The notes under the pieces were generated by a model, which ran no database searches, was not told the origin of the DNA, and saw only the letters and a list, made by a program, of their open reading frames with translations. A stretch of 64,000 nucleotides of DNA from Marsupella aquatica (Eukaryota; Plantae; Marchantiophyta). Shown here one piece after another: positions 1 through 57,755 of the stretch. The position numbers and the translations under genes were made by a program. Where the stretch lies: the NCBI GenBank assembly GCA_973895155.1, contig OZ316892.1:3847223-3911222 (forward strand). Reading direction: 5' to 3'. Position 1 is the first letter of the stretch; each line of letters begins with the position of its first letter.

Positions 1-1265
1 ATGAATGTCCTGTTGAGACAAAATTGATAGTGGCAGCAATTCGAATTCAATGACCTGCAATTTCTTGCTGCGGGCAGTCAGCTCACGGGTGGCAGTGGGA
101 TAGAATCCTTCCACCGTTGCCCTCACTCGCATCAAGACTTTGGGACCTAGACCTGGCAAGGGTGGAAAGGCACTGCAATCCTGGCAGTAATTATCTCAAC
201 GGCAGGCGCAACGTAGAGCGAATCTTTTCCTTAATCTGTGACTATCGCGTTACAAGTATAGACAATTCACATCTAGTTCTACGTAGAAGCAATCACAAGT
301 AGCACAGTTCTAACTTACTTCACATTACCTATTGAACTAGTTCCTTTGATCACAATCCAGCAAGAACCCACTCCCAAGAGTTGACGTTGTGAGCGTCCGT
401 AATCAGCTGGCCCAGGTAGACCGTTTCACTCGTGAATTTGTGACAAACATGTGTAGCGGCAATCTAACTATTGCCCGAAAACCAGACCACCTCTCAACGA
501 AAAGAGATCTGCATATGCTTGGAAACCAATTGCTCATGGCAGTTTGTGTAGTCCATAATTGGTGAATGACCTGGACCACGGTGAACAGGGGACTAGATCA
601 AACCTAATTCGAAGAGAGCTCATCCTGAACCAATTCGACAGAAATTCCAAAACGCAATAAATGACTCACGTCCGTGCTCGTACATCCAAGATACTTCAGG
701 TTCCCTTTCATTTATCTACTAAGACGAAGAAAGCAGCCACAAAAGGTGCTACTATAGTTACCATACAGAGCAACCACAAGTGCTAATCCATGCGTATCCT
801 TCGAGCCGAAACTTCGGCAAACATGATATGTAGATTTAAGCTGCGATCTACCTCCGGCTACAGATATGTGGATGTGGCAACTAGTCCTCTCCCCCCCCCC
901 CCCGGATCCTCTTCTCTCCAGCCTTCGTTCCCCGCACTGCCATCAATCTCTACTACAGGGCCCAGATTAATAAGCGTGTCATCGACTTCCATTCCTGTGG
1001 TACCTTCGCGTTACTCGTTTGGCTTCAATAGAAAATAACAATTTAGATGCAGCATAGTGACGATCTGACCATGTTCCCGTTTGCTTTTGATGTTTTCAGG
1101 TTTGTATGCTAGTCCCTACTCGCTGGAGGGTCTGCGACCAGTTCGGAGACTTTCTCGGAAGATGTCACCTCGTCTGTTACAAATTCGGCAGAACAAGGGA
1201 GCGGTTTGACAAACTCTGCTTCATTTTCGCAAGAAGGACTGAGTTCCTACTTTGGAGAAAGGTTC

Positions 1266-1283
1266 TATAATACCCTCAGCCGC
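1266..1283 (+). promoter_or_regulatory. Candidate TATA/core promoter of helicase copy 1
   Basis: TATAA(T)ACCCTCAGCCGC is present upstream of all three helicase copies (1266, 50039, 60481) although the flanks of copy 3 are diverged. Confidence 0.5.
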
Positions 1284-1940
1284 TCCTAGACAATTGCTCT
1301 GCTTGCACTGCATGAGCCCTTCCGTGAGTTCCAGTCACGTTCGAAGGAAGGGTGGAAATCGACTCAGTGCTCTCTCGTTTATGCACTGTCGTTTTCTCTC
1401 ACTCATGAGAAAGTAGCCACATACAGTGTAGAAGTTTCTGAGCATATTTGGTTAGACTTCTCGTACAAGAGGAGTATTATGCACAAGTGAACTTGTCCAT
1501 TGAGCGATGAGACCGTGAGTTAGGGTCCCTCACAGTCATGTCAGATTGACGACAAGAGCCAGCTGCATAAACGGACTTTGTCCTTATGCGCTAAGCAGCT
1601 AGTCGGGCTTTGTCCCTATACACTAAAAGGGTAACAGCAACACTAATTAGCTACTCAGAGAAGTCGGCTCACTAGTTGAGCTCGAATGTCAACTTGATTG
1701 TGGGAGAACACGAGGACAGTGTTTCTGTCCTAATCTCCAAAAGTGAAATGCAAGTCTGGTTGGTCCCATCACCCCAGCTCTCTTCCGGGAACCAACGCTG
1801 CCCCTCCCCCCTGTAGTCGAATTGGACCGACTCATTGTTTTTGGAAGGTACTAAGCTGGGCCCAATTCTCCCTCGTTGAATCACTTGTCCCATTCCAGTT
1901 TTTTCTTGTGCGCTGGGTACCTGCCAGGCGATTGAAATAA

Positions 1941-4900
1941 ATGACGACATGGGAGTGCACTGCGCTACGATGGTCGGTGCTTGACATAATCAACGAGAAC
2001 AAGTACTTAGGCAAGGTGAGTCAATGTCTTAGCCAATGGAGCGTCCTTTCTCTGCTCCCATGTATCGAGAGGTTAGTTTCAGCCCTGTTTATGCTCTGCT
2101 TTAATCTAGCTCGCAGCAATCTAAATGCTAGTAGGCCGTTGATAGTTTTGGTGTCAATAAGACATTCAACCTTTACTTTTGCTGGAATTTGTTTCATGTA
2201 GATAATTCCTGACTCGACTAAAATCTACATGAAATTACAAGTTCAAGATCAAGATCAAAAGTCTCCCAGTATCACGATGCACTTTCATCCCTCGGAACTA
2301 TTTTTTACTCCCGTGAACCTACCCGAAGTATAGTTTCGATGTAGTCTGGGCTATGCATTTCCTTTAGCTAGCTCAACTTTGCTGAAATTTTAACACGTCT
2401 TAACGTGTCTTCCGGTCTCCAGGTAGCACCTCTTCCAATGACGTTCCAAGATCTACGTTCCTATTACAAAGCGTTTCGGATGCCTTTGCTGGAAGATTCA
2501 CGTGCGCAATTAAAACGGGGTCTTGAAGAGCTTAGCACGGCTGATTATATGATAGTCAGTTACAATGGCGAGGGGAAGCGTGACGACGATGAGAAAGAAC
2601 TCATCAAACTCAACCTTGGTATCGTTCGGTTGTTCCAAAGAGGGAAGAAGGAAGATTCATCGAACCCGAAGCCTACGGATGTCCTACTCCTGTCCACATT
2701 TCTCCCAGAGAGTTTAGAGGACCTGCTAACGAAACCTGGAGGACACTATACCTTGGCGCTAATATCGAAGTCAGACGATGACTTTGCAGCATCTTTTCAA
2801 GTAAAATCATGGAGGAACACAACGAATCCTTTGTTGGGGTGCAAAAGTTGGTACGCCATCTACGTCAATAGTGCCGCTACGGTTAGGAGGATTTGGGACG
2901 CGCTAAATCCGGAACCAGCGGTGTTTCAAGATAAACGACAGCACACAGTCGCGAAGCAAAATTTGTACAGAGACAAGCACCTTGTGAAGGTAATGGTCTC
3001 TTCTCTATGTGCGACTTCCTCTGAGATTTTCAAATCATCCAAGGATTTTCCTACCTACCTAGGGATGTACAAGTTCAAAAGCACCTTCAGAAATAGAATC
3101 ACACGAGTTGCTAGTAAGTCCCGGAAGCCCACTTTTAGCTAGAATTCAAAATCACCGGGTTACGCTCTTATGGTGGCTGGTTCGATTCACAACAAACTTG
3201 TTGCTGCAGGAATGCACAACATCTGGATTTGAAGGACCTTGTGATCGGAAAGTGAATCACCTGAGAGGACTTGTTGAACATTATTGCATGTCTCGACATC
3301 TAAATGAGCCACAGATCGTAGCCATAAGTACTACTGTGATGGGACTAATGGAGAGTGACGGTGTCCGGACAAAGCTCCTTCAAGGTCCTCCAGGTAAGGA
3401 AAGGTTTTGCAGATTCATAGGATGGCAATTCTAACTAAGTGTATTCAAGTTTGTCTACCGGAATTCGCTTTTTGAAGTTGCACATCCGGATTGGACAGGA
3501 ACAGGAAAGACTACAGTTATTACTATACTCTTGTCCATCATTACTTCTTTGAAGGATCGGGTTCTTGTTAGCGCTCCAACAAATCGAGCAGTTGCGGAAA
3601 TTGCCGAAAGGTTTTTGAGGAACTTAGGAATGAAACAATCTGCCTTACTTTCTGACATTGCCAACTTCCTATCTCCGGGGGGTCATTTCGCACCATTGCA
3701 TGTTGGAGACGTTCTGCTAGTTGGAAATGAGGGTAGAATAGACGCTGACGGTATTCTTGGTGACATCTTTCTGAAGAAACGCGTAAAACTCCTCCAAAAA
3801 GCAATGGCTCCTCTCTCAGGCTGGCAAGCCTCAGCCCGAGAGGTCCTTAATATTTTGAGCACGGACTCCGGTTTGGTACAGTATCAACGGCACAAAGAAC
3901 TTTGCGACAAAGACGAACGGCCATGCCCAACATTTCTGGAGTTCATTCGACAGACAATGAATAAATTGGGGCAGGATTGGATCGAAAATGGTCGTGTGAT
4001 GTGTAAACACCTACCCAGCAAGGTACTGACTCCAAAAGCACGAGAGCTGCTTCAAATTTCGTGCGAGAGTATGGAAAATTTTCGCAAGTGTCTGAGCGAT
4101 GTACGCGTTAAAGACAAACGAGTAAGAAGGTGGTTCGAAGATGCCTCCAAGGGCCATGTTACAACAAACTCTACTGCAGACAGAGATTTTTATAGTTCTA
4201 AACAGAAACTTCTAGCTAGCATGGACAGTCGGCCTGGCTTTGATGTTCTGAAGTTGAACGTTGAAGCAACGTGCCTCCGAAATGCATCGTTGCTCTTCTG
4301 CACAACTTCCACAGCAGGAAGCTGGCGTGTGAAAAAATCGGGACGCTTCGATTATGCGGTTGTTGATGAAGCTGCACAACTTGTCGAAGCTGAGACGGCC
4401 ATAATCGCACAACTGGCTGGAATTGATCAAATGCTGTTGGTCGGGGATCCTAATCAACTTCAGGCCATGGTCACCAGTAAGGTTTGGGCTCAAATTTCTG
4501 TGCTCCCAGTGATTTGACCTTGCATAGTGAGACCAATGGTTACACATGAAATTCGAGAGAGTTAATGTCCACTATTTAAAGCCGGCTTGCAAGTAAATAG
4601 TACTTTTTGTTCCTGAATAGACGCATAAATGTGACCTATTTGGGCTGTCATTCGTTTATCTGCGATTGGCTTACCACAATCTCCCCAATGTACAACCTCC
4701 AGATATCCAAAGCAAGCGGGTACAGCAGAAGTCTGTTCGACAGGCTTCAGACACTGGGTCATCCACACCAGATGCTGAGAATTCAGTACAGAATGCATCC
4801 GGAGATAAGTAGGTTTCCTAATCAGCAGTTTTACGGAGGTCTGCTCGAGGATGCACCAAACGTTCAGCACGAATCTTATAAAATACCATGCCAAGACCTT

Positions 4901-7568
4901 TACGGGCCCTATGCTTTCATAAACGTAACGAACGGAGAAGAAGAAAAGGGGGAAAACGGGAAATCCTTCGAAAACTCTATCGAATGCGACGCCGTGCAAT
5001 ACATCCTCAACAAAATTCAAGCAGGTGATTTACAGTCATTCGATCAGATTCCAGTCTTGCACGTAGACTTTGCAGCGAGAATTAGTGATGAATAAATTGT
5101 ACTTAGTTGTACAGTCATTCGGTTGCATCCGCTAATTCGAGTTGACATTTGAGTGTCAGGCTGTTGCTGTATGTAGATTATGCACGGACGCTTTGCTTCT
5201 GGTCGATGACACTCATCCCTGTTTTGCAGAGAGTAAGACGAATTTGAGCGTGGGAGTCATTTCTCCATATCAGGGCCAGATCGCGAAGATGAGTAAACGT
5301 ATGTCAGTTCTTGCCTCTCGTGGCTCGAAGCATTCGGCTAGACTGAACGTCGATTTCAAGACGGTGGATGGATTTCAAGGAGGAGAAAAGGACATAATTA
5401 TCTTCTCAGCTGTAAGGGCAAACCCTTCAGGAAACATTGGGTTCTTGGACGATTTTCGAAGACTGAATGTGGCAGTAACCCGCGGCAGGTTGATATCTTC
5501 TTGAATCCTTATGTGTATCCTGTGACGGGTTTCGTTCGTCGGATACAAGAGGTGATACCGAGACAGCATACTGCTACAAACATTCAAAATACGAAGCTTC
5601 AATTCACAACTTCATGGTTCTTGAGTATTTAAGTCATGTCAAAGAAACTCTGGACAATGGAATACTTGCAAATTCCCCTTAGAGTTTCGTCTCGTGCATA
5701 TTGGTTTTACCTCTAGAGCGGCAATTGAATTACTTCTTTACCGTGATGCTAGCTGATCGATGGATGCCATTTTCTTTGAAACAAAGCTTGTGACTAGATC
5801 TCTGGACGGTAACCGATCTCTCCCTTCCATGCAAGACTTGGGGTCTTTCCGTTCCGCCAATCACGTGGCTGTGCCAGAAATTCCAAGTATCTTTTAGTAG
5901 CACTGAACACTATATTTGCCTGCGCGGAACAGTTCCCAAACTTACTTGTTGAAACTGCCTTGATTTACAGGCACTGTCTTTTGATCATTGGTCATGCGCC
6001 CACGTTAAGTTTCAGTGATCCGCTGTGGAGAGCAGTCATCGCGGACGCGAGTAAGAGGTTTTGCTACCGCAATACAAGAGTTGATCCATATCCGGGGACC
6101 ACAATCCCTCTTCCTCGTCAGATATGGAGCTTTGCGTAAGAATTGATTGCCCTGTTGAAATTAAGCTTTAGTGCATCAGCATAGTCACAGTTCGATAATG
6201 ATAAATGATTGTCTTAAAGTCTGAATCCCTGGGAGCTACAGCACTAAGACAACCTAAAGCGCAAAAGCAAGAAAACAGCTTATCTGCTACACTTAACCTG
6301 CTTTCGACCGGTCCAAATGTCAAGTCACGAACTGTACTGTAGAAATTGAGTCGCGTTAGGGTCCTGGTTTAGCAATTCCAGTCTTGTCAGCTTGTATCTC
6401 TATAACCCTCCGCCGGTGATATTTGATCTCTCGTTTATTGCTTTGGGCATGCGATATCTCCGCTTCTAAAAGACTAGTTCGAAAAGACTAGCATTCGAGC
6501 GACCATTCCGGAAGAAAGGAATGTGTACGAAAGAGTAGTCTAGCTTCTTCTAGGTTAGAATCCTGGTAAGTGAAATGTTTTTGTTTTTAATAGTGGAGGG
6601 CTGGGAAATTTGTGGCAGCATATATGTATCTTTTCAGCCTGGTTCTTTGGCTGATAGAGTCTGTCTCTATGAACTGTTTCAGGAATGAGGAGGAAAAGGT
6701 GGAAGATACGATAGTGGTTCAGGAGAAATTGCAGACTTTGACCTTGAAAGAGGTAGAAACTATTCAAACGATGAAAGCAAACAGGAGATTGTCAGCAGAA
6801 TCTTCAGGAAAACAGGTTGTAGTTCTGGAGAAGGTGCAGACGTTGACCAGGAAAGAGGTGAAAACTAGGAAAGAGGTGAAAACTGTTCAGCATATGAAAG
6901 CTGGACAAGCTTCACGCAAACAGGCTGTAGTTCAGGAGAAACTGCTGACCTCAGCCTTGAAAGAGGTGGAAACTATGCAGAATATTAAAGTAAACAAGAA
7001 ATTGCCTGAACAAGCTTCAGCCAACCAGGTAGTTGGGAAGAAACTGCCCGGACAAGCTTCAGGCAACCAGGTAGCTGGGAAGGAAGTACTGCAGACGTTG
7101 GCCTTGAAAGAGGTAAAAGTTGTTCAAAACAAGAAAGTAGACACGAGATTGCCCGGACAAGCTTCAGGCAAGCAGATTGTAGCTCGGGAGAATCTGCAAA
7201 CTTGGGCCTCGAAAGAAGTAAAAACTGTTCAGCAGATGAAAGCAAACACGAGATTGGCTGCACAAGCCTCAGGCACACAGGTCGGAGATCAGGAGAATCA
7301 GCAGAACTTTTTCTTGGGGGAGGTACGCCCCAATCGACAGCTGCAATCTGAAGGAAGTCGCATGAGAGCGAACAATCATCCTCTGGAGTTTACATGGGAA
7401 CACGTTGTAGCAAATGACGTTTCGAGAGTGAAGGAAGCTTCGAATTTTTCTTCCAACGCAGAATGTGGGGCGAGTCGTACAGAATCTCTTTCGACATGGG
7501 CTCTGAGAGGCCTTATGTGCCTACCTGTAGTACTAATTGCGAAGGCACTTTTTGGCAGTGGGACGTAA
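1941..7568 (+). CDS. Plant SEN1/UPF1-like (DNA2/NAM7 family, SF1B) helicase, copy 1, spliced, apparently intact
   Basis: Inferred GT-AG exons ~1941-2015, 2423-2989, 3210-3393, 3499-4481, 4703-5024, 5230-5488, 5971-6135, 6683-7568 join in phase. Motifs: WSVLDIINE and PLLEDSRAQL (N-terminal domain typical of plant DUF6469-type helicases), GPPG|TGKT (Walker A split by an intron), VVDEAAQ, LVGDPNQL, RSLFDRL, QYRMHPEI, TVDGFQGGEKD, RRLNVAVTRG. The join to the last exon is inferred; without it the CDS stops at TAA 6137-6139. Confidence 0.88.
6710..7325 (+). repeat. ~105-bp (35-aa) coding tandem repeat in the terminal exon of helicase copy 1
   Basis: About five units plus a partial one of consensus VVVQEKLQTLTLKEVKTVQNMKxNxRLxGQASGKQ in ORF 6612-7568. 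The paralogue at 55164-55695 has about two plus a partial unit. Confidence 0.85.
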
Positions 7569-8611
7569 CTTTCAGAGGCGTAACCTCTATCTACGTGCAA
7601 GGACGGCAATCGGGCCAATTATCCTGGCACGCTAGTGTTATTCTCCGCCAGGTAGCACTGACTCTAACAGGTTAATTATCTACAGAAGAAAGAGTCCCAG
7701 ATCGACTAGAGACTTGGGTTGACGTGAATTTTCACTAGGTCGTCACAAATTTGTAGCTTGTTTACGAGGTTCAAAGTCTGTATTGTTACTCACCGGATAG
7801 TCGGCTCCTCGAAGCATTGTGACTCAAAATTTGCCAGATCAGGACTGATGATGAGTCCCAGCAACTGTCTCCCAATTCGCTGTACTATCGCAATTTATGT
7901 ATAACCTTATATATGGTATACTGGCTGAGTGGGCATGTCAATCAAGGAACTCCGAGCCAGTGGTCACTTTGACAGTTGGAACCCCTTTTCACTTTCAGTT
8001 CAACCTTCAATTCGTGGGCCTTCATGACTTTACTTTCAGGGTACAATTGAGTCCCTAGTAAAGCCCTCTCATCAGTGCATTCTTATGGATAAAGTCCAGG
8101 TAAACATACGTTCAATGACTACGCTATCACAGAAGAATACAAGAACTCTCTACCAGACCAATCACATTCTTGTAGGTACACATCTTAAAGACGAGTCCCC
8201 AAAGAGTGCATTTGAGCTTGAATTGCCAGATCACTTGAAGAAAATGCTGTCTGCGTAGAGCAATTCCGATTCTAAAGATTTTCAGGTCTAACCTGTAGGC
8301 TCAGATTCCGTGTAGCTCCATTTCGATATGACGTTTCACCATTTGAACACGCTCGTGCATGCTTGTCTGACGACCAAGCTTGGTGCAAATTTGTCTGAGA
8401 ACGAAACCTTACACCGCGGAACAACACATGATTTTCTGACGACCAAACTTCGCGCATCTTCTCCGACGACAGTCCCGTTTTGCGCGGCATCATCTCCAAC
8501 GACAATCACGTTTTGCACCTACTAAGACAACTCTACTGACACAATTGCACGTGAAGTATTTTATTTCATACTTGCATCGTTTCATAAAGTGAGATGCAAA
8601 TTGGATTGAGT

Positions 8612-8771
8612 GATGAGGGCCGCGCGAACGCGAGCCCTCTCTGTCACAAATTATGACGTGCATTTTCCCCATAGGGAAATGCTAGAACTTGTCCAGTCGT
8701 GGTGCAATGAGCGGACTCGTCCTAGGCCAACCCCCTTGTGGATCAAGGTTAGATCCCGCCCAGGTAAGTAT
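8612..8771 (-). ncRNA. U1: U1 spliceosomal snRNA, divergent variant (copy A)
   Basis: Minus strand begins AUACUUACCUGG. SL1 loop GAUCCACAAG; SL2 loop contains CAUUGCAC (U1A site); SL3 GCAUUUCCCUAUGGGGAAAAUGC; helix-H partner ACGUC; Sm site AUAAUUUGUG; SL4 GAGGGCUCGCG-UUCG-CGCGGCCCUC. Length ~160 nt; 3' end approximate. Confidence 0.95.
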
Positions 8772-8795
8772 GCTTCTCCTTCATGGTGGAAGAAC

Positions 8796-8849
8796 TTTAT
8801 ACTCAGGGTATCATTGCATCTGTCTGTTGAAGGCCCGACTTATGGGTTT
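8796..8849 (-). promoter_or_regulatory. Pol II snRNA promoter: TATA box and USE-like element for U1 copy A
   Basis: TATAAA (8801-8796) starts exactly 30 nt upstream of U1 +1. AAACCCATAAGTCGG (8849-8835) lies ~33 bp further up, the spacing expected for plant Pol II snRNA genes. Both are conserved in copy B. Confidence 0.7.
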
Positions 8850-9299
8850 ACGTGATCGCGTTCACGTATGTTTTCGTGGTAGGGAGGAGCATGCGAGCCA
8901 GAAAGACAGAAACGCACTGTGTTCCGATGCACAATTCGAAAAGAAGGAGTTTTCCACGCACCCCACCTCAAACCACCCCCACAGCTTCACGACAGAAAAA
9001 CAAAAACGAGGCGCTCTAAAAAACTATCAATTGAGGGTCTCAAAAACCTGGTTTGGACTTGACCGACAAATGAGAGGTCTGGACCCCGACATCCAACATG
9101 TCACACTTGGTCGTCCCGGCCCCAGCCCTGGCCGACCCACACCCCGCCCCAACCCAGCCCAACCCTGTCTCTGTCCCGACTCCAACCCTGGTCCGGGCCT
9201 GTCATGGCCCGACCCCAGCCTGTCCCGGCCGGCCAGTGAATATAAGCAAATGTCCAACATTTGACCCCTTTTGGAGCCAAAAAATGACAAGTTAAAATT

Positions 9300-10039
9300 T
9301 AAAGTACATAATTATGCATGTAGTGTTTATTACTCAAGCAAAGTGAGGCCTCCAAGCACCAAGAAAGACTGTCTTCAGTTGGTGCATGGCACTTAGGGCT
9401 AGGTTCCATGGTGCTGGGAGTGAGGAGTGCACATGTGAGTCAGCATGTTTGAGCCAATAAGATCACAACTTTTCCAGAGAGTGACTAGTGTACAAATACA
9501 GTATTAGGGAGTATGATTTTTGCCCTCACCCTGCCCCTAGCCTGTATATATAGTGACACAACCGTGCACTCTCATTGGCTCTAGACTCTAAAACTCATAC
9601 ATTTAAATACTGCATTGGCCCTCAGTTGGCATATGGTGTATCCCCATGGGATGTCAGAGGGAGTGATTGCACTCCCTGCGGCTGGCCCATGGAACCTATC
9701 CCTTAACCGGGTGGCAGGTGACTGCAGAGGAAAAGGCAGGGGAAGGGAAAGGCGAATAGTTACTAGGATGGCAATGCTAGGATGAGCTAGGTATGATTGT
9801 GCAGATGAGGCAACTTCCATACACCCTCTCTCCCAATATCCTCCTGCCGTCTCATTTCATTATGAAATCAAAGCATTCCCCCACCCAACACTTCCCCCTA
9901 AGGAGCCCTAGTCACCCTCCTTACGACCCACTTGCACCAGAGCAAGCCTTGTCCCCTCACACCCATTCTCTATGTAGCCCATTCAGCTAGACTCTTCCTG
10001 GAATGTCATTTATGGCATTCATAGAGTCTGCTGCCCCAA
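9300..10039. repeat. Unclassified repeat segment hosting the Helitron; an internally deleted homologue lies at ~57995-58370
   Basis: Blocks at 9300-9390, 9705-9975 and 19375-19450 match the contiguous 57995-58370 in unit 2. No termini recognised. Confidence 0.45.
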
Positions 10040-11374
10040 TCTAACACTATAATAACCGATGCCGCCTTTTTTTGGCTTTCGTCCGTTTACGAAATGAGCA
10101 GAGGGCGGGAGTCATCCATGGCCGTTGGATTATTTCACATTTTTTAAGGGCCGTTGATTGGTTTGTTTGTCCCCTGTCTCGCCGCCAGATGAGGTACGTT
10201 TGTCCGTCGCCGTATCACTACCGTAGTTTGCTTTCCCTCTGGCAACGACCTGCCTGGCTGTGCCACGACTTGGTATGCCCTGCCCTGCAGGGCTTGCGCT
10301 TGCCTGGGTTGCCCTCCTGCCTTGCTTCCCCTGACCCCCCTTGAGCGCCCAAGTCTCCCCTCGCTCCAGTCCAGGCAAGGAGTAGACAGCGTAACCCTGC
10401 CGTTCTGCCTGCCTCGCACGTCCCTCCTGCCTCTCTCCGTGGCTAGCCTGCGACGCTGCTTGGGCTGCCCTCCCTTGCCATCGGCTGTTGTCAGGGGCTG
10501 CCATCGGCGCGCTCCCCTCCCATGCACGCCCCTCACCCCATGGCACACCCTCCTCCCTCCTCTTTTGGCTCGCCCTCCTCCCTCCTCGCCATGGCCCTCC
10601 TCCCCGCCACGGCGCTCCGCTCCTCCACGGCCCTCCTCCCTCCCACGGCCCTCCTCCCTCCTCCCCGCCTCCGCTCCTCCTCCCCTCCACGGCCCATGGA
10701 GTACTCCCGCATGGAGGGAGCATCGGCCCTCCCCTTTGCGCCCCCCCTCGGCCCCTGCCATTGACCATCCCCTCTCGCTCCCTCCTCGCCACCTCGCTGG
10801 TGGCTGCCGGCTCCCTCCTCGCCAGCTCTCCTCCTTGCCGGCTCGCCGGCTCTCCTCCTCGCTCCCCACTCCCCACTCCCTCCTTGCCACCTCGCTTCCC
10901 GCTCCCTCCACTTTCTTCCCCTCCTCGGTGCCTTCCCTCCTCAATGCGAAACCTGGGGTGCAGCACGAAACCTCAGGGCCCGACTCTGGATTGGCCCGCC
11001 GCGCCTGGATTGGCCCGCTGCGCCTCATGCCCTCCCTCCCCGACCGGGCGCAGCCTCGCTCTCACCCTGGCACACCCCACGCCTGGATTGGCCCGCTGTG
11101 CCCCGCTCCCTAAACCCGCCCTCCGCCACTGCCAGCCCCTCCAAGCCCCGGCCACCCCTCGCCCTTGCTACATTGGAACCGGCACCCTGCCTTGGAACTT
11201 TCTTTGTCAGTCCAGGCGTGCCTTGGCCCCCACGGTTGAGGCCCCTCGATCGCCCCCTGCCGCGACTGAGGCTGCCTCCATCGCTCCAGTCCAGGCGCGT
11301 CACGGCAAGCACAGCCCGTCCCTGCACCTCCCTTGGATGCACTGCCATGGCCCTGGCTCACTGGCACCTCCCCC

Positions 11375-11775
11375 TCCCTTGCCCAGGCGCGGCTGCGACG
11401 CCTGGAACCAGTCCAGGCGCGGCCATGCTCGCCCTCACGCTCACTCGCTTGCCCTGCCACGGGCCCTTGGTCCAGGCGTGCTCTCTGCCTCCCCTTGGCT
11501 CACGGCTGCCTGGCCGCGCCTGGACCGCCCTGCCACCGTCTTTGGCGTGCCTCCAATGCTCCTCGGTCCAGGCGTCCCTTGCCCAGGCGCGGCTGCCACG
11601 CCTTGGAACCAGTCCAGGTGCGGCCATGCTCGCCCTCACGCTCACTCGCTTGCCCTGCCACGGGCCCTTGGTCCAGGCGTGCTTTCTGCCTCCCCTTGGC
11701 TCACGGCTGCCTGGCCGCGCCTGGACCGCCCTGCCACCGTCGTTGGCGTGCCTCCAATGCTCCTCGGTCCAGGCG
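11375..11775. repeat. 200-bp tandem duplication in the GC-rich 5' part of the Helitron
   Basis: GCCCAGGCGCGGCTGC... starts at 11381 and again at 11581; the two copies are near identical. Confidence 0.9.
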
Positions 11776-12805
11776 AGCTCACGCTAAGGCGGCTGTAGCC
11801 CCAATCCATGCGCGCTTTGGGCTGGCTCACCGGCTCTCCTCGCCCTTGCTCTACCCTCGCCCTGGCCATCCCTCTGCCAACATCCCCGAGGTGAGCGTTG
11901 GTGCCTCGCCGTGCACCCTGCATTGGTTGACTCTCCTGAGGTTGCCCCTGCCCGTGCCTAGACTCTGCGGCCATGGCTGCCTCTCCCAATGTCACCCCTA
12001 CCACACATGAGTGGTCAGGCTGCGGCCAGTGCATGGTTGCCACTCGCCCATGCCTGGACCCTTTGGTAACCAAGGTGAGCCCGTTCCATGTCACGGCCAA
12101 ATATGACACCCTCGCCCATGCCTGGATCAATGTCAACCCCGTACTCTGCCGCACGGCTAAGCCAATCTGTCACCCTGCCTGCCACGCTTGCTCGCCTTGG
12201 CATTCCATTAACTCGATCAGCGCCTAGACTTTTTGGGGTTGGGGGCCAAAATTTCACCGCGAAATGTGGTCCGGGGGTGGCAGGACCCCAGAAGTATATA
12301 TAAGGGGACTAATGGTTTTGAGGGAATGAGATGGGAACTGATGGGAACGATGATGGGATCTGATGGGAGCGATGGTCCATGAGTGACGGCAATGGCAATG
12401 GGCAACCCTCAAACAAGGATGGAATATGTTTGGGGGGACAAATGCAATGGAATGGAGAATTTTCCACGTCCCATGGGTGACGGACACAGGGATGGGTGAC
12501 CTTTTGGCGTAATGAATACTAGGGGGTACCACTCGGGGTACCATAGGGGCAAGAGACATCGTGGAAGCAAGATAATCGCCAGCAAGGTTGGGGGGGTGAG
12601 ACGAGGGATTGTGGTAAGCAGTATCATCGACGGATATTGAATCTCCTCACATGTCTCGGGTCTCTTGCAAAGGTGTGGCCCAACCGGCGTTCAACATAGC
12701 ATTTACTTAGGGGTCTGTCGAGCTTCATTGCAAGTGCATCCAAAATTCTCATATGTTGTGTGGGTTGGATGCAGATGATGAAGGGGTTTTGAGAGTTTTT
12801 GGACC

Positions 12806-15800
12806 ATGAGAACACCAAGCGAAATATTGGAAGCTGATCGCGAGCGGCATGCCCAAAATAGGGCAGCCATAAATGCAAGGCGTCGTCAGTGATATGCCGA
12901 GCGACGTCTGCAAGAGGGGGCTGAAGTTTGTACGGTGCCGCAGCCAACCTCCACACCAAGTGTGGGATCTCCAATAACAGTGGCAAGCATTACACCAAGT
13001 ATGGCACTTTTGATACCAGACTCAAGTGTGCCACCTTCCCCTAGAGTTAGTGGCCGACAATTGCACCGCAAAGCAAGGGCACCACGGAGAATTCCAACAA
13101 AAGTGGTGGCTTCCCTTGAGGGGGCCATTTTAGGACCAACTGTAGCATCTGGCCGCGCAAATAGTGGAAGGGAGCTTCGCCGTCAAGCAAGGGCTACTCA
13201 AGAGGCGTCGGCCAGATCCATCGTTGTCAATAACAGCCGTGAGGGAACCCCAAGTGCAGTTTCCACTCATGCAGTGACGCCTGTGAACGGTTTGTCCGAC
13301 CCTCCCATGTTCGATGAAGGTTGGCTCATTGATGGTGCCTTGGATGCATGTAGGGTTGACCAATATCCGGAGGAATTTGCCATTCCCCCACCATGTGAGC
13401 CCATAACCAACACTGTGTCAGAACATCTACATGTCTTTGACGAGGATTGGCTCATTGATGGCGCTCTACAAGATGGGGTTGCCTCTTTGGCCGTCCCCTT
13501 GCCCTGTGAGTCCATGCCAAACAATGAATGGTCTGACCCTCACATCTTTGATGAAGATTGGCTCATTGATGGTGCATTGCACGAGGGGGAAAATCCTATC
13601 CTGCATGATGGAGGAGGTCAATTTGACACATTTGTTCAAGGCACCTTGGATTTGCCAAATGAATATGAGGATGACGAGATAGACCATAACCTCCAAGAGG
13701 AAACGGGAGGCATAAACCTGGCACCAATTACCCCAGCTCAACTCAATCCAAATGACGTATTGCGGGAGCGTCAAAGATTGGAAGAGATCCAACGGTTGCC
13801 AAAGGCAAGACAACCTTTGGACCCTACAATGGGTCGACATCTTTTGGGGCAAATGAACATCGAGTGCCAACAATGTAAAGCGCTTCATTGGATGGAAGAG
13901 TGCAAGTCAGGAACACAACGCAACCCGTGCTTCACCATGTGTTGCGCCGACGGGAAAGTGAGATTGCCCCCGCTTGGTGCTCCCCCTGAGCCACTTCGAG
14001 GCTTGCTGATTGGTACCAACGCCGTAGCAATAGCATTCCGAAAGAATATTCGAGGCTACAACAATGCCCTAGCATTTACCTCCCTAGGTGTTAAAATTGA
14101 CGAAAGGGGTGGCAATCGTGGCCCATACTCCTTTCGTATCCAAGGAGCATTGTATCATCGTGCTGGTAGCCTCTTGCCTCCTGATGGAGCAGGGCCAAAG
14201 TTTGCTCAACTCTATATTCATGACACAGGGAATGAGTTGGGGAACATGTAATTAACATGTGCAACTTATTTCATATTCCTTTGATGTTACATGATCTTTG
14301 CAATATTGTGTCTTATGGTTTTTTCTTGGGTTCCAGGATGAATAGGATGCCACAATTGGATCAGGCGGTGTTGGCTTCCTTGCAAGAGATGCTCCATATG
14401 TACAATCCGTATGTGAGGGTCTTCAAAAATGCAGGGAGCCGTATTGATGACACTGAGGTGCCAGACATATCGCTACGTATTGTAGCGGAGCGGGACACAG
14501 ACCCCAGGCGCTACAATAAACCAACGGCAGATGAAATTGGCGTGATAATGGTTGGAGATGAGGATATTGAAACATGTGGGAGAGATATAATCCTAAGGAA
14601 GAGGAATGGTGGCCTACAACGGATTTCCGAGTGGCATAGGTCCTATGCCCCGCTCCATTATGTTTTACTCTTTCCTCACGGACAGGATGGATGGTCTTAT
14701 GACATCCCGTTGGCGGGGCACGAATTCCAGGATGGGGTCATTGTGGCTGTTGAACCAGGAGCCAGGGGTGGACGAAATGGTTCTAAGAAGGTGACCCAAC
14801 TTCAATACTATGCGTATATGTTACATGCAAGGCGGGAAGATGATTGGCTGCTTCGTGGTGGAAGATTGCTGAAGCAATTTATTGTGGATGCATATGCGTG
14901 TATAGACCAGACACGCCTCACATATATTCGGAACAATCAGAAAAAGCTTCGGACCGAGTTATATCAAGGGCTACAAGATGCAGTTCAAGACGGGGATGCA
15001 CAAGCAAGCAATGTGGGTAGGACCTACATTTTACCGTCCACATATGGGGGTAGTGCACGACATATGATGCAGGCCTATCAGGATGCCATGGTGGTTGTTC
15101 GAACATATGGGCCTCCTGACCTTTTCACAACTTTTACATGCAATCTTGAATGGCCTGAAATCAAAGTGGAGTGCTTCCCCTACCAGACCCCGGCCGACTG
15201 CGATGACATTGTGGCAAGAGTGTTCAAACTTAAGTTGAAGGCCCTATTGGCGGATATTCGGGCAGGGGTATTGGGTAGACCTATTGCCTCTATGTATGTC
15301 ATTGAATTTCAGAAGAGGGGTCTGCCGCACGCCCACATTCTCATAATATTGGTGGAACAACATAAGTTACGCACTCCACAGTTGGTTGATCAATTGGTTT
15401 CGGCAGAGATACCAGACGCACGAGTACATCCACAATTATATCAAACTATTATGAAGTCCATGGTCCATGGTCCATGCGGTCGTGGATATCCAAACTCACC
15501 TTGCATGGTCGACGGGCAGTGCAGCAAGGGCTATCCACGATCATTCTCAACCAAAACAGTTTTTGGAGATGATGGATATCCTATGTATCGACGTCGGGAT
15601 GATGGCCGCAATTTCTCAAAAGACCGAAGTGGGTTTAAGTTTGACAATAGTTGGGTTGTTCCTCATAGTCCATATTTGAGCATGAGATTCAATGCCCATA
15701 TTAATGTGGAGATTTGTTGCTCTATTAAAGCAATCAAGTATTTATACAAGTACTGTTATAAAGGGCATGATAAGGCAACGGTTGAGGTGGAGCAACGAGA

Positions 15801-18084
15801 TGAAGTGAAGGAGCACTTAGATGCCAGATATGTCTCTGCTGCTGAGGGAGTATGGCGCATTAACCAGTTTGAAATGTCTGAGAGTACTACTTCGGTGCAA
15901 CGGCTGCAAGTTCATTGTGAGGGAGAACAATCTATAATGTTCAATGAGAATTCTAACATCAGTGATGTGGTTCAACGAGAATCTCATAGGGACACAACCC
16001 TCACAGGGTGGTTCAGAGCTAATACTTTGCATGAACGGGCAAAACAACTTCTCTACAACAATTTCCCCCATGAGTTTGTATGGGATACGTCCTCCCGTGC
16101 ATGGAACCCACGAAGAAGAGGGTTTAGCATTGGCAGGATGTATTTTGTGCCGCCAGCCGCGGGTGAACGGTACTATTTGAGGGCACTTCTTCTTCACATC
16201 AAAGGTGCAACATCATTCATCGACCTTCGCACTTTTGAGGGCATTGTATACCCCACCTTTCAAGCAGCAGCTCTTGCTCGGGGTTTGTATGAGAACGATG
16301 AGGAGTGGGATAGATGCCTTCAAGAAGCGGCAAGCATGCACACCGGTGCGCAAATACGACAACTATTTATTACGATATTGTTGTTTGGAGGTGTTACCAA
16401 ACCGTGCGACCTATGGGCACAACATGCATCCAATTTGAGTGATGATTGTAGGTATCGTTTGCAATTGATGGGCTTCTTAGATTCTACAGAGCAACAACAA
16501 CAAAGCTTTGCTCTACATTTGATGGATGAGGCTTTGAAAAGTGTGGGTAAAACATTGTTGGAGTTTGGTCTTCCGGAACCAAGTATGGATTTCTTCCAAG
16601 AGGAAGAAAATAGAAACCGGTTGATATATAAGAGAGGAGACATGTTATCCAATGGATGTACTTCTACAACAACTTGCAGAGCAAGAGCCGTTGTTGAACG
16701 AGGGTCAAAGGGCAACGTACACTGCAATACTTGCAGCCGTGAGGGCTCGAGATGGAGCGACATTTTTTATTGATGGACCAGGGGGGACAGGCAAAACATT
16801 TGTGGAGAATGTTCTACTTTGGAGCGTCCGTGCAGATGGGGACGTCGCATTGGCCGTAGCTTCCTCGGGTATTGCAAGTCTTTTGTTAGATGGAGGTCGC
16901 ACCGCACACTCAAGATTCAAGCTACCATTGAAACCAATCTCGACATCAACATGTGGCATCCAAAAACAATCTGACCTTGCTGGATTATTGCGGAGGGCAA
17001 CTTTTATTTTGTGGGATGAAGCACCCATGATCCATCGGCATGGAGTGGAGGCGTTGGATAGAACTTTACGCGACATACGAGATAATGACCGAATCTTTGG
17101 AGGGGTTGTAGTTGTATTTGCAGGTGATTTTCGACAAGTGCTTCCAGTGAAGGCAAGGGCAAGTCGTCCAGAGATTGTGGGGTCGTGTTTGAAGAAGTCT
17201 TATGTGTGGAGTAGTATACGGACTTTGAAGCTAACTGAAAATATGCGGGCAAGAGGAACTAACACATCTCCTGAATTTGGTAATGTTACATTTGCGGAGT
17301 GGCTACTACAATTGGGCGATGATAAACTCCCAAAAGGAGGGCCTTCAAATAATCTTATTACTTGCCCTGAGTCTATGGTGGTGGATGGAGGACGTGTGGA
17401 ATCATTGATTCAGGCAATATACCCAACTCTTGCTAATGTGGACGACAGGTTCTTAAGTGAGAGAACTATTCTGGCGCCGACAAATGATGAGGCACTAAAA
17501 ATTAACGACTCTATCTTAGAAGGAATTCCTGGGAATCAAGTGAGTTTTTTAGCGTTGATCGTCCAGATCAGCTCGAAGGGGAAAATTTCTACCCTACGGA
17601 GTTCTTGAATACACTCACGCCGAGTGGTCTGCCGCCTCATAAGTTGGTACTGAAGGTTGGATGCCCTATCATTTTACTTAGGAATATAGATCACTCTTTG
17701 GGGTTGTGTAATGGTACTCGGTTAATTGTGAGAGCAATGAATCATCGTGTCATTGAGGCACGTGTTCTTGCAGGAAAACATGCAGGGACCCTTACATTTA
17801 TCCCACGGATTCCGTTGACCTCTGACGAGTCACTTCCTTTCTTATTACGTAGGGTCCAATTTCCAATTCGAGTGGCATATGCAATGACCATAAACAAGGC
17901 TCAAGGTCAGACTTTAGAACATGTAGGGTTGCAACTTTCAAAGCCTGTATTTAGTCATGGACAGTTGTATGTAGCATTCTCAAGGGCAACATCACCTACA
18001 ACTATCAAGGTTTTACTTTCAGATTCCGAGGAGGGTCAAGCAAAGTTGACAAAAAATGTTGTATATGATGAGGTTCTTTATTGA
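12806..18084 (+). pseudogene. Helitron RepHel (HUH Rep endonuclease + PIF1-like helicase), disrupted
   Basis: Zn finger CQQCKALHW..E..CCADGKV; Rep motifs PDLFTTFTCN, VIEFQKRGLPHAHIL, KYLYKYCYKGHD; PIF1 motifs [47 protein letters not shown]. Putative ATG 12806, premature TGA 12890, GT-AG intron 14248-14336, frameshifts near 16630 and 17545. Confidence 0.93.
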
Positions 18085-27710: not shown

Positions 27711-30700
27711 TCATGGCACAGGCACACTGTTGGCATCTGCATCTCTGAATTCGCCTCCTTCAGCAAATACATCTACCCTTGTCACAGGAATGAAGTCCCC
27801 GCTATCATGAACTACAGGCACTTGGTCTGAACGCCGACGATCAAAGGCACTATGAGAGTGTAAATGAAACTCAAGGTTTGATCCTTCCATCCGACGTTGC
27901 CTGGCCTGTTTATGACACACTACACGCCAACCTGGGGAGTCTTCCACATCCAGGAAGAAAGCTTGCTCCACCTGACTAGGAAACACAAATGGCTCAGACC
28001 ATTCGGGCAATTTCCCTCTGAAATTGGCCAGCAAGAAACCGTCGTTGTCTCTCTTCATGGTAGCCCTGTTACCAAGCCAATCCTGCCGCACCCATGAACC
28101 TTTCATAAGAATCACAGGACTGGACACCGCCCCATAGTCCAAAGCCCATATGTCAACTAATTCTCCCACATATCCCATCTCCATCCAGGCCCTGTCGTGA
28201 TTGTGGCTCTGTTGCTCAAATACAGTGATGAGCCCGTAGTCATTCGTCACCCTGTAGGCACTGTCACCATCCTTCACTCGGAAGTGATTTCCATATGCTC
28301 TCATCCGTTTGTAAGTCTTCACTTTCAGGCTAGGGGCATTAGACAGTAGGTAAACATCTGCATCCATGTCTGGGTGGGTCTCGTGATGCTCTCTAATTGC
28401 CACTCTGATCCACTCCATGAAACCTGGAAAAGTTGTTCCTGCAGTGGGATGGGCCGCCTTCAATGACTCATACTCCCTGAACGAACAACCACACAGCATT
28501 AGCTTGGGTAAACATGAACAGGCTGAAGGAGAAAACCACACGAACACAACATTTAAGCTCATGAACTGGATTATAGCACATGTATGCACTCACTGTATCC
28601 AGGGTTCCATCACCACAGTGTTGTGCAATACAAAGTCATGTGCCAAGTCTCTCATAGATATGGTCAGGTTCTTTGTGGTTGCAGCCCCTTCCAGTACTTC
28701 ACCTATCACCCCTTCCTCCTCATCAGAATTCCACACCCTGGTCTTCACATGCTCATATTGTGCTATGTATTCGGTCAGAAATCCCAGAGTCTCATCCTTG
28801 ATGTAACCTTTAGCCATGCTTGCTTCAGGTTTGTAATATGTTCTCACGTGACCTTTGAGTAGCTTCATGTACCGTTCCAAAGGGTACAACCAACGAGCAC
28901 TCACAGGCCCAAATTGGTGTAGCTCTTCCACAACATGGACAAGTAGGTGGGTCATGACATCAAAAAATGCGGGAGGAAAATAAATCTCCAGGTCACACAG
29001 CACCTGAGCGACATCTTCTGTCAGTTGTGGGAAGTGTGTTTCATCCCAAACCTTCACACAAATACGACGAAACACATCACTGAGTCGCATGATCACAGTA
29101 CGAACAGGCTTCTGCAACAGGCCCCTCAGGCATAAAGGCAACACATGTTGCATCAACATATGGTAGTCATGGCTTTTCATACTACCAAGCTTTCTAGTCA
29201 TGATATGCTTCTTGAAAGCACTGCCATAGTTTGAAGGAACCTTCAAAGAACTCAACCTCTGCACAAATAGTTCCCACTCTGTGTCTGTCAGAACATAGGG
29301 CGCTTGGTACTTCAAGAGCACATCAGCTCTGTGGGCATGTGGCCTCAACCAAAGATGGGGTTTCATTCCCCTCTGTTCAAGATCCAATCTCACTGAACCA
29401 GTGTCTTTCTCTCCACACAAGAATCTGAGTAGACTCTCACAAATATTCTTTTCAATGTGCATAACATCAATGTTATGTTTGCTTGGCTCAAACTCCTGCA
29501 TCGTTGCAATGCAAAAGCGTCAGGAAATGCCTCAAGTTTAGTCTCTCTCTTCGAAATGAATGCACATGCTCTGAACCAAAACATGTATCCCAATTAGCAT
29601 CAACTCCAAGAGGCTTACCCTCCAGTACTTGAGCTCCAAGTCCAATATGCTCAGTCTTTTTACACCATATCGCTTTATTGGATCACTCACTCCATCTTCC
29701 CTGCCCCCTCGTTTGATATTGTCATCCCTCAGTGCTCCCCACTGCCTGATCTCCTCTTTGGTCACTCGTGCCGGGGGTCCACGTTGCTCAATCTCATTGC
29801 CAAAGTGTGCAATCAGTGCCTGTCTTTCTCTGTAAGGGTGATCTGCCTTCAGAAAATGATGATGGCCCATGTATATCACTTTCTGCAGGGCTCTGGAGTA
29901 CTCACTGGTGACATTGCGCCCACATATAGTACAAGCACAATATCCTTTTGTTGTTTGGCCTGATATCATCCCATGGGCTGGGTAGTCAGCTATAGTCAGA
30001 ATGACAATGGCTCTAAGGATGAATGGGTTTAACCTCCCAAGCCTCTGTAGGACATCATATGTGAGAACTCCTTCCTCCCAAAGCTTTCTCAATTCCTCCA
30101 CTAGGGGAGCCAGAAACACATCTATGTTGGCAGATACAGCACTGTCTGGCCCTGGTATCAGTAGGACCATCAGAACAAAAAATCGCTTTATAGTCATCCA
30201 AGGACGAAGGTTATAATTCAAAATAGTTACAGGCCAGCACGAAAATTTGTTGTTCTTGTCTCCAAATGGGTTTACCCCATCCAATGACAGCCCAAGTCTG
30301 ACATTCCTCGGCTCAGCAGCAAATTCGGGATACATCTCATCTATGAGTTTCCATTGCCTTGAATCTGCAGCATGTCGTTGTAGCCCATCATCACTTTTCT
30401 TGTCAGTTGCCCAAGTCATCATCTCCGAGATGGCACGGCTTCTGAACATCCGCTGAAGTCTGGGAATGAGTGGAAAATGACGAAGTACCTTGGCGGGAAC
30501 CATAGACTTTCCTGAGTTCCGATACCTGTGCTTCATACACTTAGGGCATGTCAACGATTCTTTATACTCCTTTCTGAAAAGAACATGCCCATCAGGACAG
30601 GCATGGATCGAATCATAGTTCAATCCAAGATTAGATATGCATCTTTTTGCCTCGTACATGTTCTTGGGCAAAATATTACCATCTGGTAGCACAGTTGTTC

Positions 30701-31442
30701 GCAAGAATGCCAACAACTCAGAAACCAAAATGTTGGGGACATTGTGGTTGCCGCAAATGTTCAGGAACATGATGACAAATCCCAGTTTAGAACATTTGCT
30801 ACCGGGGTACAAAGACTTCCTGCCTTCCTGTATTTGCAGGGGAGAGCCAAACATCCCATCATGCCCAGGGGTTTCCTGCCCTATCTCAAACTCATCAAGA
30901 GGCTCTTCGACAGGGGGCACACTTGCATCTGCAGCCGTATCCTCTTCATTGTCCAGCCCATCATGAAATGCATCCAAGTCTTGGAAGATGTCTCTCACCA
31001 TCTCTTCCACATGAATTCCTTCGTCACGTGGTGCTGCCTGAGCACCATCCCGTTGGAGAGCTGACAACCCACAGAGACCAGCTACAACATTTTCAAATGC
31101 ACCAGGCAGAACCTCACTTGCCCGTCTTGCAGCATTGGCAGCATCAAATTCTAACCTCCACTCCTCGTCGGAAGAATCTTCCTCTGCAGGATCATTCCAA
31201 ACTCGATGTCGTGGATCTCTTCCATGAACCGCGATATGCCGCCAAACCTCATTCAGACCCCTGGTACGGGATCCTTGGCAGATTGCACAAGGACATCTCA
31301 TCCTATTGGCTCCTGAAAGTCTGGTTCGTAACCTTTCACGCTGCCAAAGCTTATTATCATGGCGTGATATCCTTGTGGGATGATGCAAAGGCAGTGCCTG
31401 TGCCCTGGGCTGGGTCTGGGGAGGGTGGTGACCAGGGTGCAT
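27711..31442 (-). CDS. CACTA TnpD/Tnp2 transposase, apparently intact
   Basis: Exons ~31442-29619, 29495-28594, 28476-27711 join in phase. Motifs MRCPCAIC..H (transposase-associated domain), IHACPDGHVLF, RNVRLGLSLDGVNPF, TIADYPAHGMISG, HNIDVMHIEKN, MKSHDYH, FFDVMTHLLVH, RWLYPLER, EPFVFPSQVEQAFF. Confidence 0.93.
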
Positions 31443-31875
31443 TGTAACAGGCTGGGAGCTCTGCAGTCATGGACAGCAGTGAACAAGGATGCCTAATGGT
31501 GGTATTTGTGTTCCATATATCCCTGACTGTATCTGCCAAAAGAGTTAACATAACGTGTACTAAATTCTCACAAACCCTAAACCACCCCAAAAGAAAAAAA
31601 CAGGTTCGCAAGTAGTGTACCTATTGTCAAGTGAATGACACAAAATTCCTAAATGTTGGAGGGTGTCACCACCTCCTCCGCTGTCCTCAAATGTACCGCC
31701 TCTGCATGTACGTTTACAGTGACACCCCCAGGCAGCAGGAAACAACAATCCGCCAACAGTAAAATAAGCCCTACTGCCACCAACCATAACAAGGTACATT
31801 AGTTCAAAGATCACATTTATTTCAATGATCTGATTTATACAAAAAAACTTGTGTCCAAACTGATGCTACTACTCC

Positions 31876-33339: not shown

Positions 33340-34020
33340 TCACAGCCAAGATATGTGATCTCTCACAGGAGTGCGCGAGGTAGGATCAATGGCATGGCGA
33401 TGACAATAAAATATCCATCGATCAACACCATGTGCAGAGTGATCATAGATTTCTCTGTCACAAGCATAACCCTCTGCTTGATGATCTTTCAGGCAATGAT
33501 AGTGCCACATAGTGGGACACCTAGCACAGTGGACTATGTCAGTCCAGTAGTCATCATCATGCTCACCACATGCCTTGCACCTATGAAGTGGGCAAGCTGT
33601 GGCATGAGCAGGCAAACACTCAAAACAGAAAAATCTCACACAAAAACGGTCTGGACATTTCCTAACATTTGCTGCAGCATCAACAGAGCCCTCATAGGAC
33701 CCCAACTTCCCACACTGTGCACACTTAGCCTGCTTCTCCAAACAATCAGTGCACATCCAGTCTCCCTGGTGTGTTGACGGGAGGCCCACCCCTGGACAGT
33801 TGTTTTCTGCAGCAAGGTCAGACTCCGGGTTGAGGTGGAAATGCCTCATGCAAGGGCCCTCACAAATGACCAGGCCCCCACCATCGTCACAAATGGCACA
33901 ACAATGAGCTGCCTTCTGGAAAATCTGACTTGCAGAGAAGTTAGTAGCATCTGCCCCAAGTACACCTGTGTTTCTCACCTCTGTCACACGCTTTTTGGCT
34001 TGAATTTTAGGCCGTGCCAT
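33340..34020 (-). CDS. Stand-alone EDM2/NSD-type tandem PHD-finger protein, CACTA cargo
   Basis: Intronless 226-aa ORF: CAICDDGGGLVICEGPCMRHFH..WMCTDC..KCAQCGKLGS..CPLHRCKAC..CARCPTMWHYHCL..IFYCHRHAID..TPVRDHI. Collinear with the PHD cassette of plant EDM2 as recalled (CAICDNGG..CEG.C.RSFH..CPLHKC..TPVRDHV). Confidence 0.85.
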   Translation of the reverse strand: MARPKIQAKKRVTEVRNTGVLGADATNFSASQIFQKAAHCCAICDDGGGLVICEGPCMRHFHLNPESDLAAENNCPGVGLPSTHQGDWMCTDCLEKQAKCAQCGKLGSYEGSVDAAANVRKCPDRFCVRFFCFECLPAHATACPLHRCKACGEHDDDYWTDIVHCARCPTMWHYHCLKDHQAEGYACDREIYDHSAHGVDRWIFYCHRHAIDPTSRTPVRDHISWL

Positions 34021-34031
34021 GCCTGCGCATG

Positions 34032-34175
34032 AGATAGACTCTACAATTTAGCAGACTGTACAGAAAGTAAAATATATTTAGCATTTAAGGTACAAAGGCA
34101 TTTAGATAGACTCTACAATTTAGCAGACTGCACAGAAAGTAAAATATATTTAGCATTTAAGGTACAAAGGCATTT
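34032..34175. repeat. 72-bp tandem duplication just upstream of the PHD ORF
   Basis: AGATAGACTCTACAATTTAGC...AAGGCATTT starts at 34032 and at 34104, with one mismatch. Confidence 0.92.
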
Positions 34176-44700: not shown

Positions 44701-45200
44701 ATCTCTCCGACACTGATACCGCAAAATCCCAAACTGGATATGTTTTTACCATAGGGGGTACCGCTTTTTCTTGGAAAAGCGTGAAACAGACCCTAACAGC
44801 AACCTCATCGAATCACTCAGAAATATTAGCTCTACATGAGGCTAGTCGTGAAGCCGTTTGGTTACGATCCTTTATAAACCACATCAACACCAAATGCGAC
44901 CTACCACCACTAACGAAGCCTACTAACATTTTTGAGGATAACGCAACATGTATACAGCAGGTCACAAAAGGATTCATCAAAGGCGATCGCGTGAAGCATA
45001 TAGCTCCAAAGTTTTTCTACACCCACGAGTTACATGGAAAAGAGATCAACATTTTGCAGATTTCAAGTGCAGACAACTGTGCGGATCTCTTCACCAAATC
45101 ACTATCGCCATCAGTTCATCATCGACACTGCCAGGCGATTGGACTACGGAGCGTGCGACGCATGATGACCGTGGAGGCTGCTACTCCACATGATACTTGA
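41787..45200 (+). pseudogene. Copia pol (rest of protease, integrase, RT, RNase H), disrupted
   Basis: WHARLSHP..CTAC (HHCC), HADVCGP, RVDNAGEF, QNGLAE, YKARLV, LYGLKQSGR, YVDDL, GYADA, FEDN, ADLFTK. Frameshift ~42420, 26-bp duplication 43394-43450, stop at 44358. Confidence 0.93.
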
Positions 45201-57305: not shown

Positions 57306-57505
57306 ACACAATAGCACGAGAAGTACTTTATTTCACACTTGCATCCTTGCTTCGCTTGATGATCAAGTGAGATACTAACACAATAGCACGAGAAGTACTT
57401 TTTTTCATACTTGCTTCGTTTGATGATAAAGTGAGATGCTAACACAATAGCACGAGAAGTACTTTTTTTCATACTTGCTTCGTTTGAAGATAAAGTGAGA
57501 TGCTA
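57306..57505. repeat. ~65-70-bp tandem repeat, 3 copies, downstream of U1 copy B
   Basis: ACACAATAGCACGAGAAGTACTTT...AAGTGAGAT occurs three times; a single copy exists in unit 1 at ~8539-8597. Confidence 0.85.
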
Positions 57506-57517
57506 GTTGGATTGACT

Positions 57518-57677
57518 GATGAGGGCCGCGCGGACGCGAGCCCTCACTGTCACAAATTATGACGTGCATTTTCCCCTTAGGGAAACGCTAGAACTTGTCC
57601 GGTCGTGGTGCAATGAGCGGACTCGATCTAGACCAACCCCCTTGTGGATCAAGGTTAGATCCCGCCCAGGTAAGTAT
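57518..57677 (-). ncRNA. U1: U1 spliceosomal snRNA, divergent variant (copy B)
   Basis: Same AUACUUACCUGG 5' end, SL1 loop, U1A site and Sm site as copy A. SL4 tetraloop is UCCG, with a few SL2/SL3 changes. AGTCAA (3'-box-like) lies just downstream. Confidence 0.93.
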
Positions 57678-57701: not shown

Positions 57702-57755
57702 TTTATACTCAGGGTATCCTTGTATCTGTCAACTGAAGCTCCGACTTATGGTTTT
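57702..57755 (-). promoter_or_regulatory. TATA box and USE-like element for U1 copy B
   Basis: TATAAA at -30 (57707-57702); AAAACCATAAGTCGG at 57755-57741. Confidence 0.65.

Follow-up and report, generated by a model that had tools for sequence, protein, structure and literature searches.

Is the U1 snRNA gene at 8612-8849 an ordinary working U1 gene of its genome, or does it encode a minor variant with an altered U1-70K loop that stands beside a different major form? The question concerns one locus of the window, which is the whole stretch of 64,000 nucleotides of DNA that was analysed. The initial annotation favored the variant, pointing to stems unlike those of typical plant U1, a changed loop in stem-loop 1 and a promoter with a non-canonical USE-like motif.

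The region 8612-8849 contains a whole U1 snRNA gene together with its promoter, on the minus strand. A gene was counted as a member of the Rfam family RF00003 if its covariance-model score, taken across the full model, exceeded the curated gathering threshold, as it does for both U1 genes of the window, here called copies A and B. In cmscan, where the gathering score is 69.5, copy A scored 110.5 bits (E = 5.6e-27), and model positions 1-166 of 166 are covered, running from 8771 to 8614. The features of the coding region of copy A are as follows.

8614..8771, minus strand: U1 snRNA coding region, copy A, 158 nt (Rfam RF00003, fold)
8761..8771, minus strand: 5' end AUACUUACCUG, RNA positions 1-11 (exact match to the Rfam consensus)
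8725..8755, minus strand: stem-loop 1, the U1-70K site (cmscan alignment; pair table, columns 16-27 with 38-48)
8735..8744, minus strand: loop of stem-loop 1, GAUCCACAAG, 10 nt, RNA positions 28-37 (sequence)
8702..8708, minus strand: U1A-type loop of stem-loop 2, AUUGCAC, RNA positions 64-70 (aligned to the consensus CAUUGCAC)
8644..8652, minus strand: Sm site AAUUUGUGA, RNA positions 120-128 (aligned to the consensus AUAAUUUgUGg)
8615..8639, minus strand: 3' terminal stem-loop 4 (cmscan alignment, fold)

Copy A shares with canonical U1 (RF00003) the AUACUUACCUG end, a set of four stem-loops, AUUGCAC in the second loop and, after the Sm site, stem-loop 4. Its AUACUUACCUG is complementary to 5' splice sites and is unchanged. 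With the full model matched at 110.5 bits and the 5' end, the U1A loop, the Sm site and stem-loop 4 all read, the earlier description of a complete gene with every U1 landmark was confirmed. The single-sequence fold of copy A has an energy of -62.6 kcal/mol (z = -4.0); of 200 shuffled sequences, none was as stable. A more permissive scan of the 64-kb window found no Rfam families besides both U1 genes, and no other snRNA genes or USE-driven genes were found within it.

The loop of stem-loop 1 in copy A consists of G28 A29 U30 C31 C32 A33 C34 A35 A36 G37, with the same numbering, 28-37, as in human U1. The stem and a 10-nt loop are present, and G28-C31 and A35-G37 are retained. Positions 32 and 34 are both C, where the usual loop, GAUCAnGAAG, has A and G, respectively. 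Copy A thus differs from canonical U1 in carrying C32 and C34 in place of A32 and G34, and the altered loop named by the initial annotation was read again here as GAUCCACAAG.

The human U1 snRNP structure offers a guide to the weight of these two changes. According to its description (PMC4383343, section 6), Arg172 and Tyr112 enclose a flipped-out G28, the loop is closed by an A29-A36 pair, and U30 lies against Leu175 with a bond to Asp177. In the same section, C31 and A32 are stacked against Phe106 and Phe148, and C33 and G34 are mutually stacked between Arg191 and Lys138, two residues that both form salt bridges with phosphates. All of the bases to which it gives specific roles (28-31 and 35-37) are retained in copy A, and the contacts that it lists for the changed positions, 32 and 34, are base stacking and salt bridges to backbone phosphates. 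Because the bases with specific roles are kept, and 32 and 34 are held by stacking and backbone contacts, U1-70K binding would be expected to be retained, perhaps with altered affinity.

A second U1 gene is found toward the other end of the window.

57519..57677, minus strand: U1 snRNA coding region, copy B (Rfam 113.9 bits; pairwise alignment)

The coding regions of copies A and B are identical at 150 of 158 positions (95%), including the whole of stem-loop 1, whereas the 200-base flanks are only 60-81% identical (162/200 upstream and 121/200 downstream). Inspection of the 8 coding differences shows 7 that are unpaired or keep their pair, as G-C/G-U or A-U/G-U; the difference at position 52 weakens a pair of stem-loop 2 in copy B. 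The USE, the TATA box and the spacing between them are kept in both copies. Copies A and B show the pattern expected of two genes under constraint.

Both genes are part of larger repeated segments. A unit of about 7.7 kb, containing a SEN1/MAA3-like AAA_11/AAA_12 helicase gene, a repeat-rich ORF and the U1 gene, is present twice (1224-8973 and 49996-57891, 78-87% identity). In addition, 2406-4945 matches 61341-63982, and a third helicase copy begins near the end of the window. The U1 genes are therefore passengers of a tandem segmental duplication.

Several types of transposable elements were observed in the window. A Helitron-type element at 14236-18084 (plus strand) contains a Helitron_like_N ORF (E = 1e-54), and the next ORF is a PIF1-like helicase (E = 3e-72). 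ORFs of a CACTA/En-Spm-type transposase occupy 27711-31466 on the minus strand, with Transposase_21 (E = 4e-68) and DUF4218 (E = 4e-28) domains. Ty1/copia-type retrotransposon ORFs with RVT_2 and a retroviral SH3-like integrase domain lie at 41782-45200 on the plus strand and are apparently split over several frames. The region 10130-12170 is GC-rich (GC 0.58 in 8001-12000, against about 0.44 elsewhere) and has long, overlapping, proline/arginine-rich ORFs on both strands, in which peptide segments are repeated internally; it resembles low-complexity or tandem-repeat DNA more than a gene.

Information on further U1 paralogues was obtained from sequencing contigs. Four public runs, from organisms A and B, contain this exact DNA. 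The numbers of contigs matched on 8450-8950 in the four runs were 17, 34, 20 and 41, from which U1 paralogues appear to be many, contigs not being gene counts and depth not being copy number. Contigs at least 80% alike were matched, and a canonical-loop U1 with different stems would escape. No differences fell within the loop, 8735-8744, in this wider match among the 40 listed of 90 rows.

In run X4, one of those with this exact DNA, 16 contigs were matched on 8700-8785, with all of their differences listed. Within the loop, two contigs have 8738 G>C, one has 8739 T>A and one has 8739 T>C; there are no other loop changes. The loop-variant contigs have depths of 25.6 and 24.2, and these matching depths indicate that the changes at 8738 and 8739 pair up into the loops GAUCCUGAAG and GAUCCGGAAG. 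Two X4 paralogue contigs therefore carry the canonical G34, and the U1 family is not uniform. None of the 16 contigs has a change at 8740, the position of C32. In run X18, which comes from a different organism (E), 3 contigs were matched on 8700-8785; their loops are GAUCCGCAAG, GAUCCUCAAG and the unchanged form, all of which read GAUCCNCAAG, i.e. GAUCC[A/U/G]CAAG. No A32 was found among these 16 X4 and 3 X18 contigs, and the majority of the summed contig depth lies in contigs of the CAC type. No contig of runs X10 (possibly from RNA) and X12 (from DNA) was matched on 8700-8785, a result that says nothing on expression or absence. Of the 22 runs listed with sequence of this locus, none is recorded as an RNA run. 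The four air-metagenome runs X5 and X7-X9 share a small part, 0.06-0.15, of the sampled words of 8450-8950, from which no habitat can be read.

C32 is thus fixed in all of the U1 paralogues seen, which are at least 80% alike, and C34 predominates. A minor variant would coexist with a major U1 that differs from it, and no such coexistence was found among contigs at least 80% alike. The idea of a variant beside an ordinary U1 is not supported: copy B has the same stem-loop 1, the 16 X4 contigs keep C32, and X18 reads GAUCCNCAAG. The initial annotation had itself proposed that equality with the species' ordinary U1 would end the variant reading, and the sequence of copy A does appear to equal it, as far as copy B and the X4 and X18 contigs at least 80% alike cover the family.

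The lineage of the window bears on the comparison with other plants. The exon of the AAA_11/AAA_12 helicase gene that adjoins the U1 gene gave 39 protein matches. The top 3 are from the leafy liverwort Calypogeia fissa, with 56-64% identity over 91-94% of the query; the remaining matches have at most 40% identity, mostly over shorter parts of the query. Calypogeia is the nearest relative in the protein matches, and the window most likely comes from a related liverwort other than Calypogeia fissa. With the nearest proteins from this species, angiosperm U1 is the wrong comparator, and the "typical plant U1" that had served as a yardstick does not suit a genome nearest a leafy liverwort. The PHD-like ORF at 33340-34047 had no match in a protein search, and a protein atlas look-up of the window gave generic BRCT clusters only. 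Literature searches found no paper on liverwort U1 or on its loop, nothing relevant on 70K loop mutations, and, judged by title or abstract, none about the RNA sequence of U1 snRNA in Marchantia polymorpha; among 142 papers containing the loop string, the 10 listed have titles unconnected with U1.

The frequency of such loops in U1 genes at large was examined in metagenomes. A pattern of ATACTTACCTGG, 13-19 bases and GATCNNNAAG matched at least 126 stretches, and the loop was tallied in those 102 of the matches listed (94 unique) that also had a U1A-type loop motif. Among the 94 unique stretches, again from the matches listed, 85 have A at position 32, 6 have C and 3 have T, whereas at position 34 there are 68 with G, 18 with C, 6 with T and 2 with A. 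The CAC loop, GAUCCACAAG, occurs in none of the at least 126 environmental matches listed, and is thus unusual at large. CCC at positions 32-34 was seen once among the matches listed, in L111, with the loop GAUCCCCAAG and a score of 132 bits against Rfam.

Among prokaryote genome contigs, GATCCNCAAG gave 1 match, L127, which has the loop GAUCCGCAAG and is an animal-type U1 scoring 149 bits against Rfam. It is a 1944-base contig binned in a Sulfurovum MAG, and most likely represents DNA of a host or another eukaryote that contaminates the bin. The GAUCCNCAAG pattern had 0 matches in viral contigs.

Four environmental genes with GAUCCNCAAG or GAUCCUGAAG loops (L111, L127, L055 and L084) resemble the window U1 genes in having C32, with or without C34; they score 123-149 bits against Rfam, and none has CAC. 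All belong to unrelated lineages. L111 and L127 differ from the window U1 in their animal- or protist-like stems and in being without the plant USE, whereas L055 and L084 are of the plant type and have the USE form TCCCACAT. From these comparisons, C34 is a common natural state and C32 a rarer one, and the pair of changes at 32 and 34 has arisen independently in good U1 genes elsewhere. For scale, the window copies score 110-114 bits and eight other U1 genes 112-149 bits against Rfam.

The stems were compared in an alignment of 18 sequences, made up of the window copies and plant-type environmental U1 genes. In 24 of 45 predicted pairs both sides have changed and the pair is kept; in the upper stem of stem-loop 1, the double changes come from the two window copies. 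The SL1-SL3 stems of the window copies therefore differ from canonical U1 in being rewritten with compensatory changes, and the statement that these stems differ from typical plant U1 while still pairing holds, including for the stem of stem-loop 1. The environmental U1 genes nearest to copy A among the matches listed, L021, L090, L036 and L080, are 76-80% identical to it over the gene, and identity to the window U1 does not exceed 80% in any of the at least 126 matches listed.

The promoter elements of the two copies are given below.

8796..8801, minus strand: TATA box, TATAAA, -30 to -25 (sequence; conserved in copy B)
8835..8847, minus strand: USE-like element of copy A, ACCCATAAGTCGG, -76 to -64 (33-34 bp upstream of the TATA box)
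57741..57751, minus strand: USE-like element of copy B, CCATAAGTCGG (motif search, upstream alignment)

CCATAAGTCGG occurs 2 times in 64 kb, both times at the same place upstream of a U1 gene, and the USE core in the window is ACCCATAA. The angiosperm USE consensus is TCCCACATCG. At least 22 plant-type environmental U1 loci have TCCCACAT and a TATA box, and differ from the window, with its ACCCATAA core, in this form of the USE.

In Arabidopsis snRNA genes transcribed by polymerase II, the USE and the TATA box are 32-34 bp apart, according to the introduction of PMC8287931, and the spacing of 33-34 bp in copy A falls within this range. Copy A therefore resembles plant polymerase II snRNA genes in having TATA at -30 and an upstream element 33-34 bp before it. 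Table 1 of the same paper lists USE forms of green algae that include ACCCATAA in Auxenochlorella and ACCCAYAW in Micromonas; its Supplementary Table S1 covers bryophyte USE motifs and may already include a USE of the ACCCATAA type in liverworts. Since ACCCATAA is among the published green-algal forms, the "non-canonical" USE is a known form of the element. The TATA box at -30 and the USE-like motif of the initial annotation were both found.

Different spacings were observed among the environmental genes. L021, L036 and L090, which are 3 of the 4 environmental U1 genes nearest to that of the window among the matches listed, have the TCCCACAT USE at -64 and TATA at -32 upstream of their U1 genes. 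In the other 19 plant-type loci among the matches listed, the TCCCACAT USE is at -73 to -75. The short spacing of the former resembles the Arabidopsis polymerase III value given in the telomerase-RNA paper (PMC8287931), though these are U1 genes.

Taken on this evidence, copy A is likely to be one intact gene of a multicopy family and the ordinary working U1 of a liverwort-like genome. Polymerase II would start its transcript at the A at 8771, and the RNA would assemble with Sm proteins, U1A and U1-70K, and the unchanged 5' end would pair with 5' splice sites. Another reading, which seems improbable, is that copy A encodes a minor variant U1, akin to animal vU1, beside an unseen canonical major U1, and that its weakened or retargeted binding of U1-70K serves a specialised or regulatory snRNP. 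The two loop positions that depart from GAUCAnGAAG would suit such a variant, as would the 0 count of the CAC loop in the at least 126 environmental matches listed. The contig matching would also miss any canonical U1 below 80% likeness, and the nearest plant-type environmental U1 among the matches listed is itself just 80% identical across the gene. G34 in two X4 paralogue contigs implies that loop types coexist in the species. These G34 paralogues, however, still have C32, and A32 is found in 0/16 X4 and 0/3 X18 contigs. The loop is common to both window copies, the same loop type is found in unrelated U1 genes of 132-149 bits, and a coding region more conserved than its flanks, with an intact promoter in copies A and B, also argues against this reading. 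Human vU1, as treated in the part of PMC8457000 available, is alike in being a multicopy family whose copies differ, including in protein-binding loops; the difference is that the unusual loop is here the common form among the copies seen, and not a departure from a major form.

It is less probable still that copy A is silent or decaying, carried along in the segmental duplication and no longer contributing U1 RNA. That it lies in the duplication of about 7.7 kb, amid many transposons, is compatible with such a fate, and the Rfam scores of the window genes are low among the ten U1 genes scored (110-114 against 112-149 bits). The USE also departs from the TCCCACAT of at least 22 plant-type environmental U1 promoters. 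Against decay, the full RF00003 model is matched, the functional motifs are all intact, and the differences between A and B mostly preserve pairing. The USE, the TATA box and the spacing were kept, and the coding region stayed at 95%, while the flanks fell to 60-81%. Beyond the preferred reading of an ordinary working U1, a liverwort lineage-wide change of A32 to C and G34 to C in the U1-70K loop, with the U1-70K RRM co-evolved to read the new loop, is a speculative proposal that we consider unlikely, if somewhat less so than the two readings just weighed. If true, such a lineage-wide change would be a natural re-tuning of a core snRNP RNA-protein interface.

The window contains two good U1 snRNA genes that deserve annotation, with little significance beyond that for the genes as such, and neither the loop nor the promoter alters the known mechanism of U1. 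In this bryophyte lineage, GAUCCNCAAG appears to be the standard loop of stem-loop 1, with C32 fixed. The snRNA promoter combines the green-algal ACCCATAA form of the USE with the polymerase II spacing of the angiosperm type. Data on this loop and this promoter will be useful for models of U1-70K recognition and of the evolution of plant snRNA promoters.
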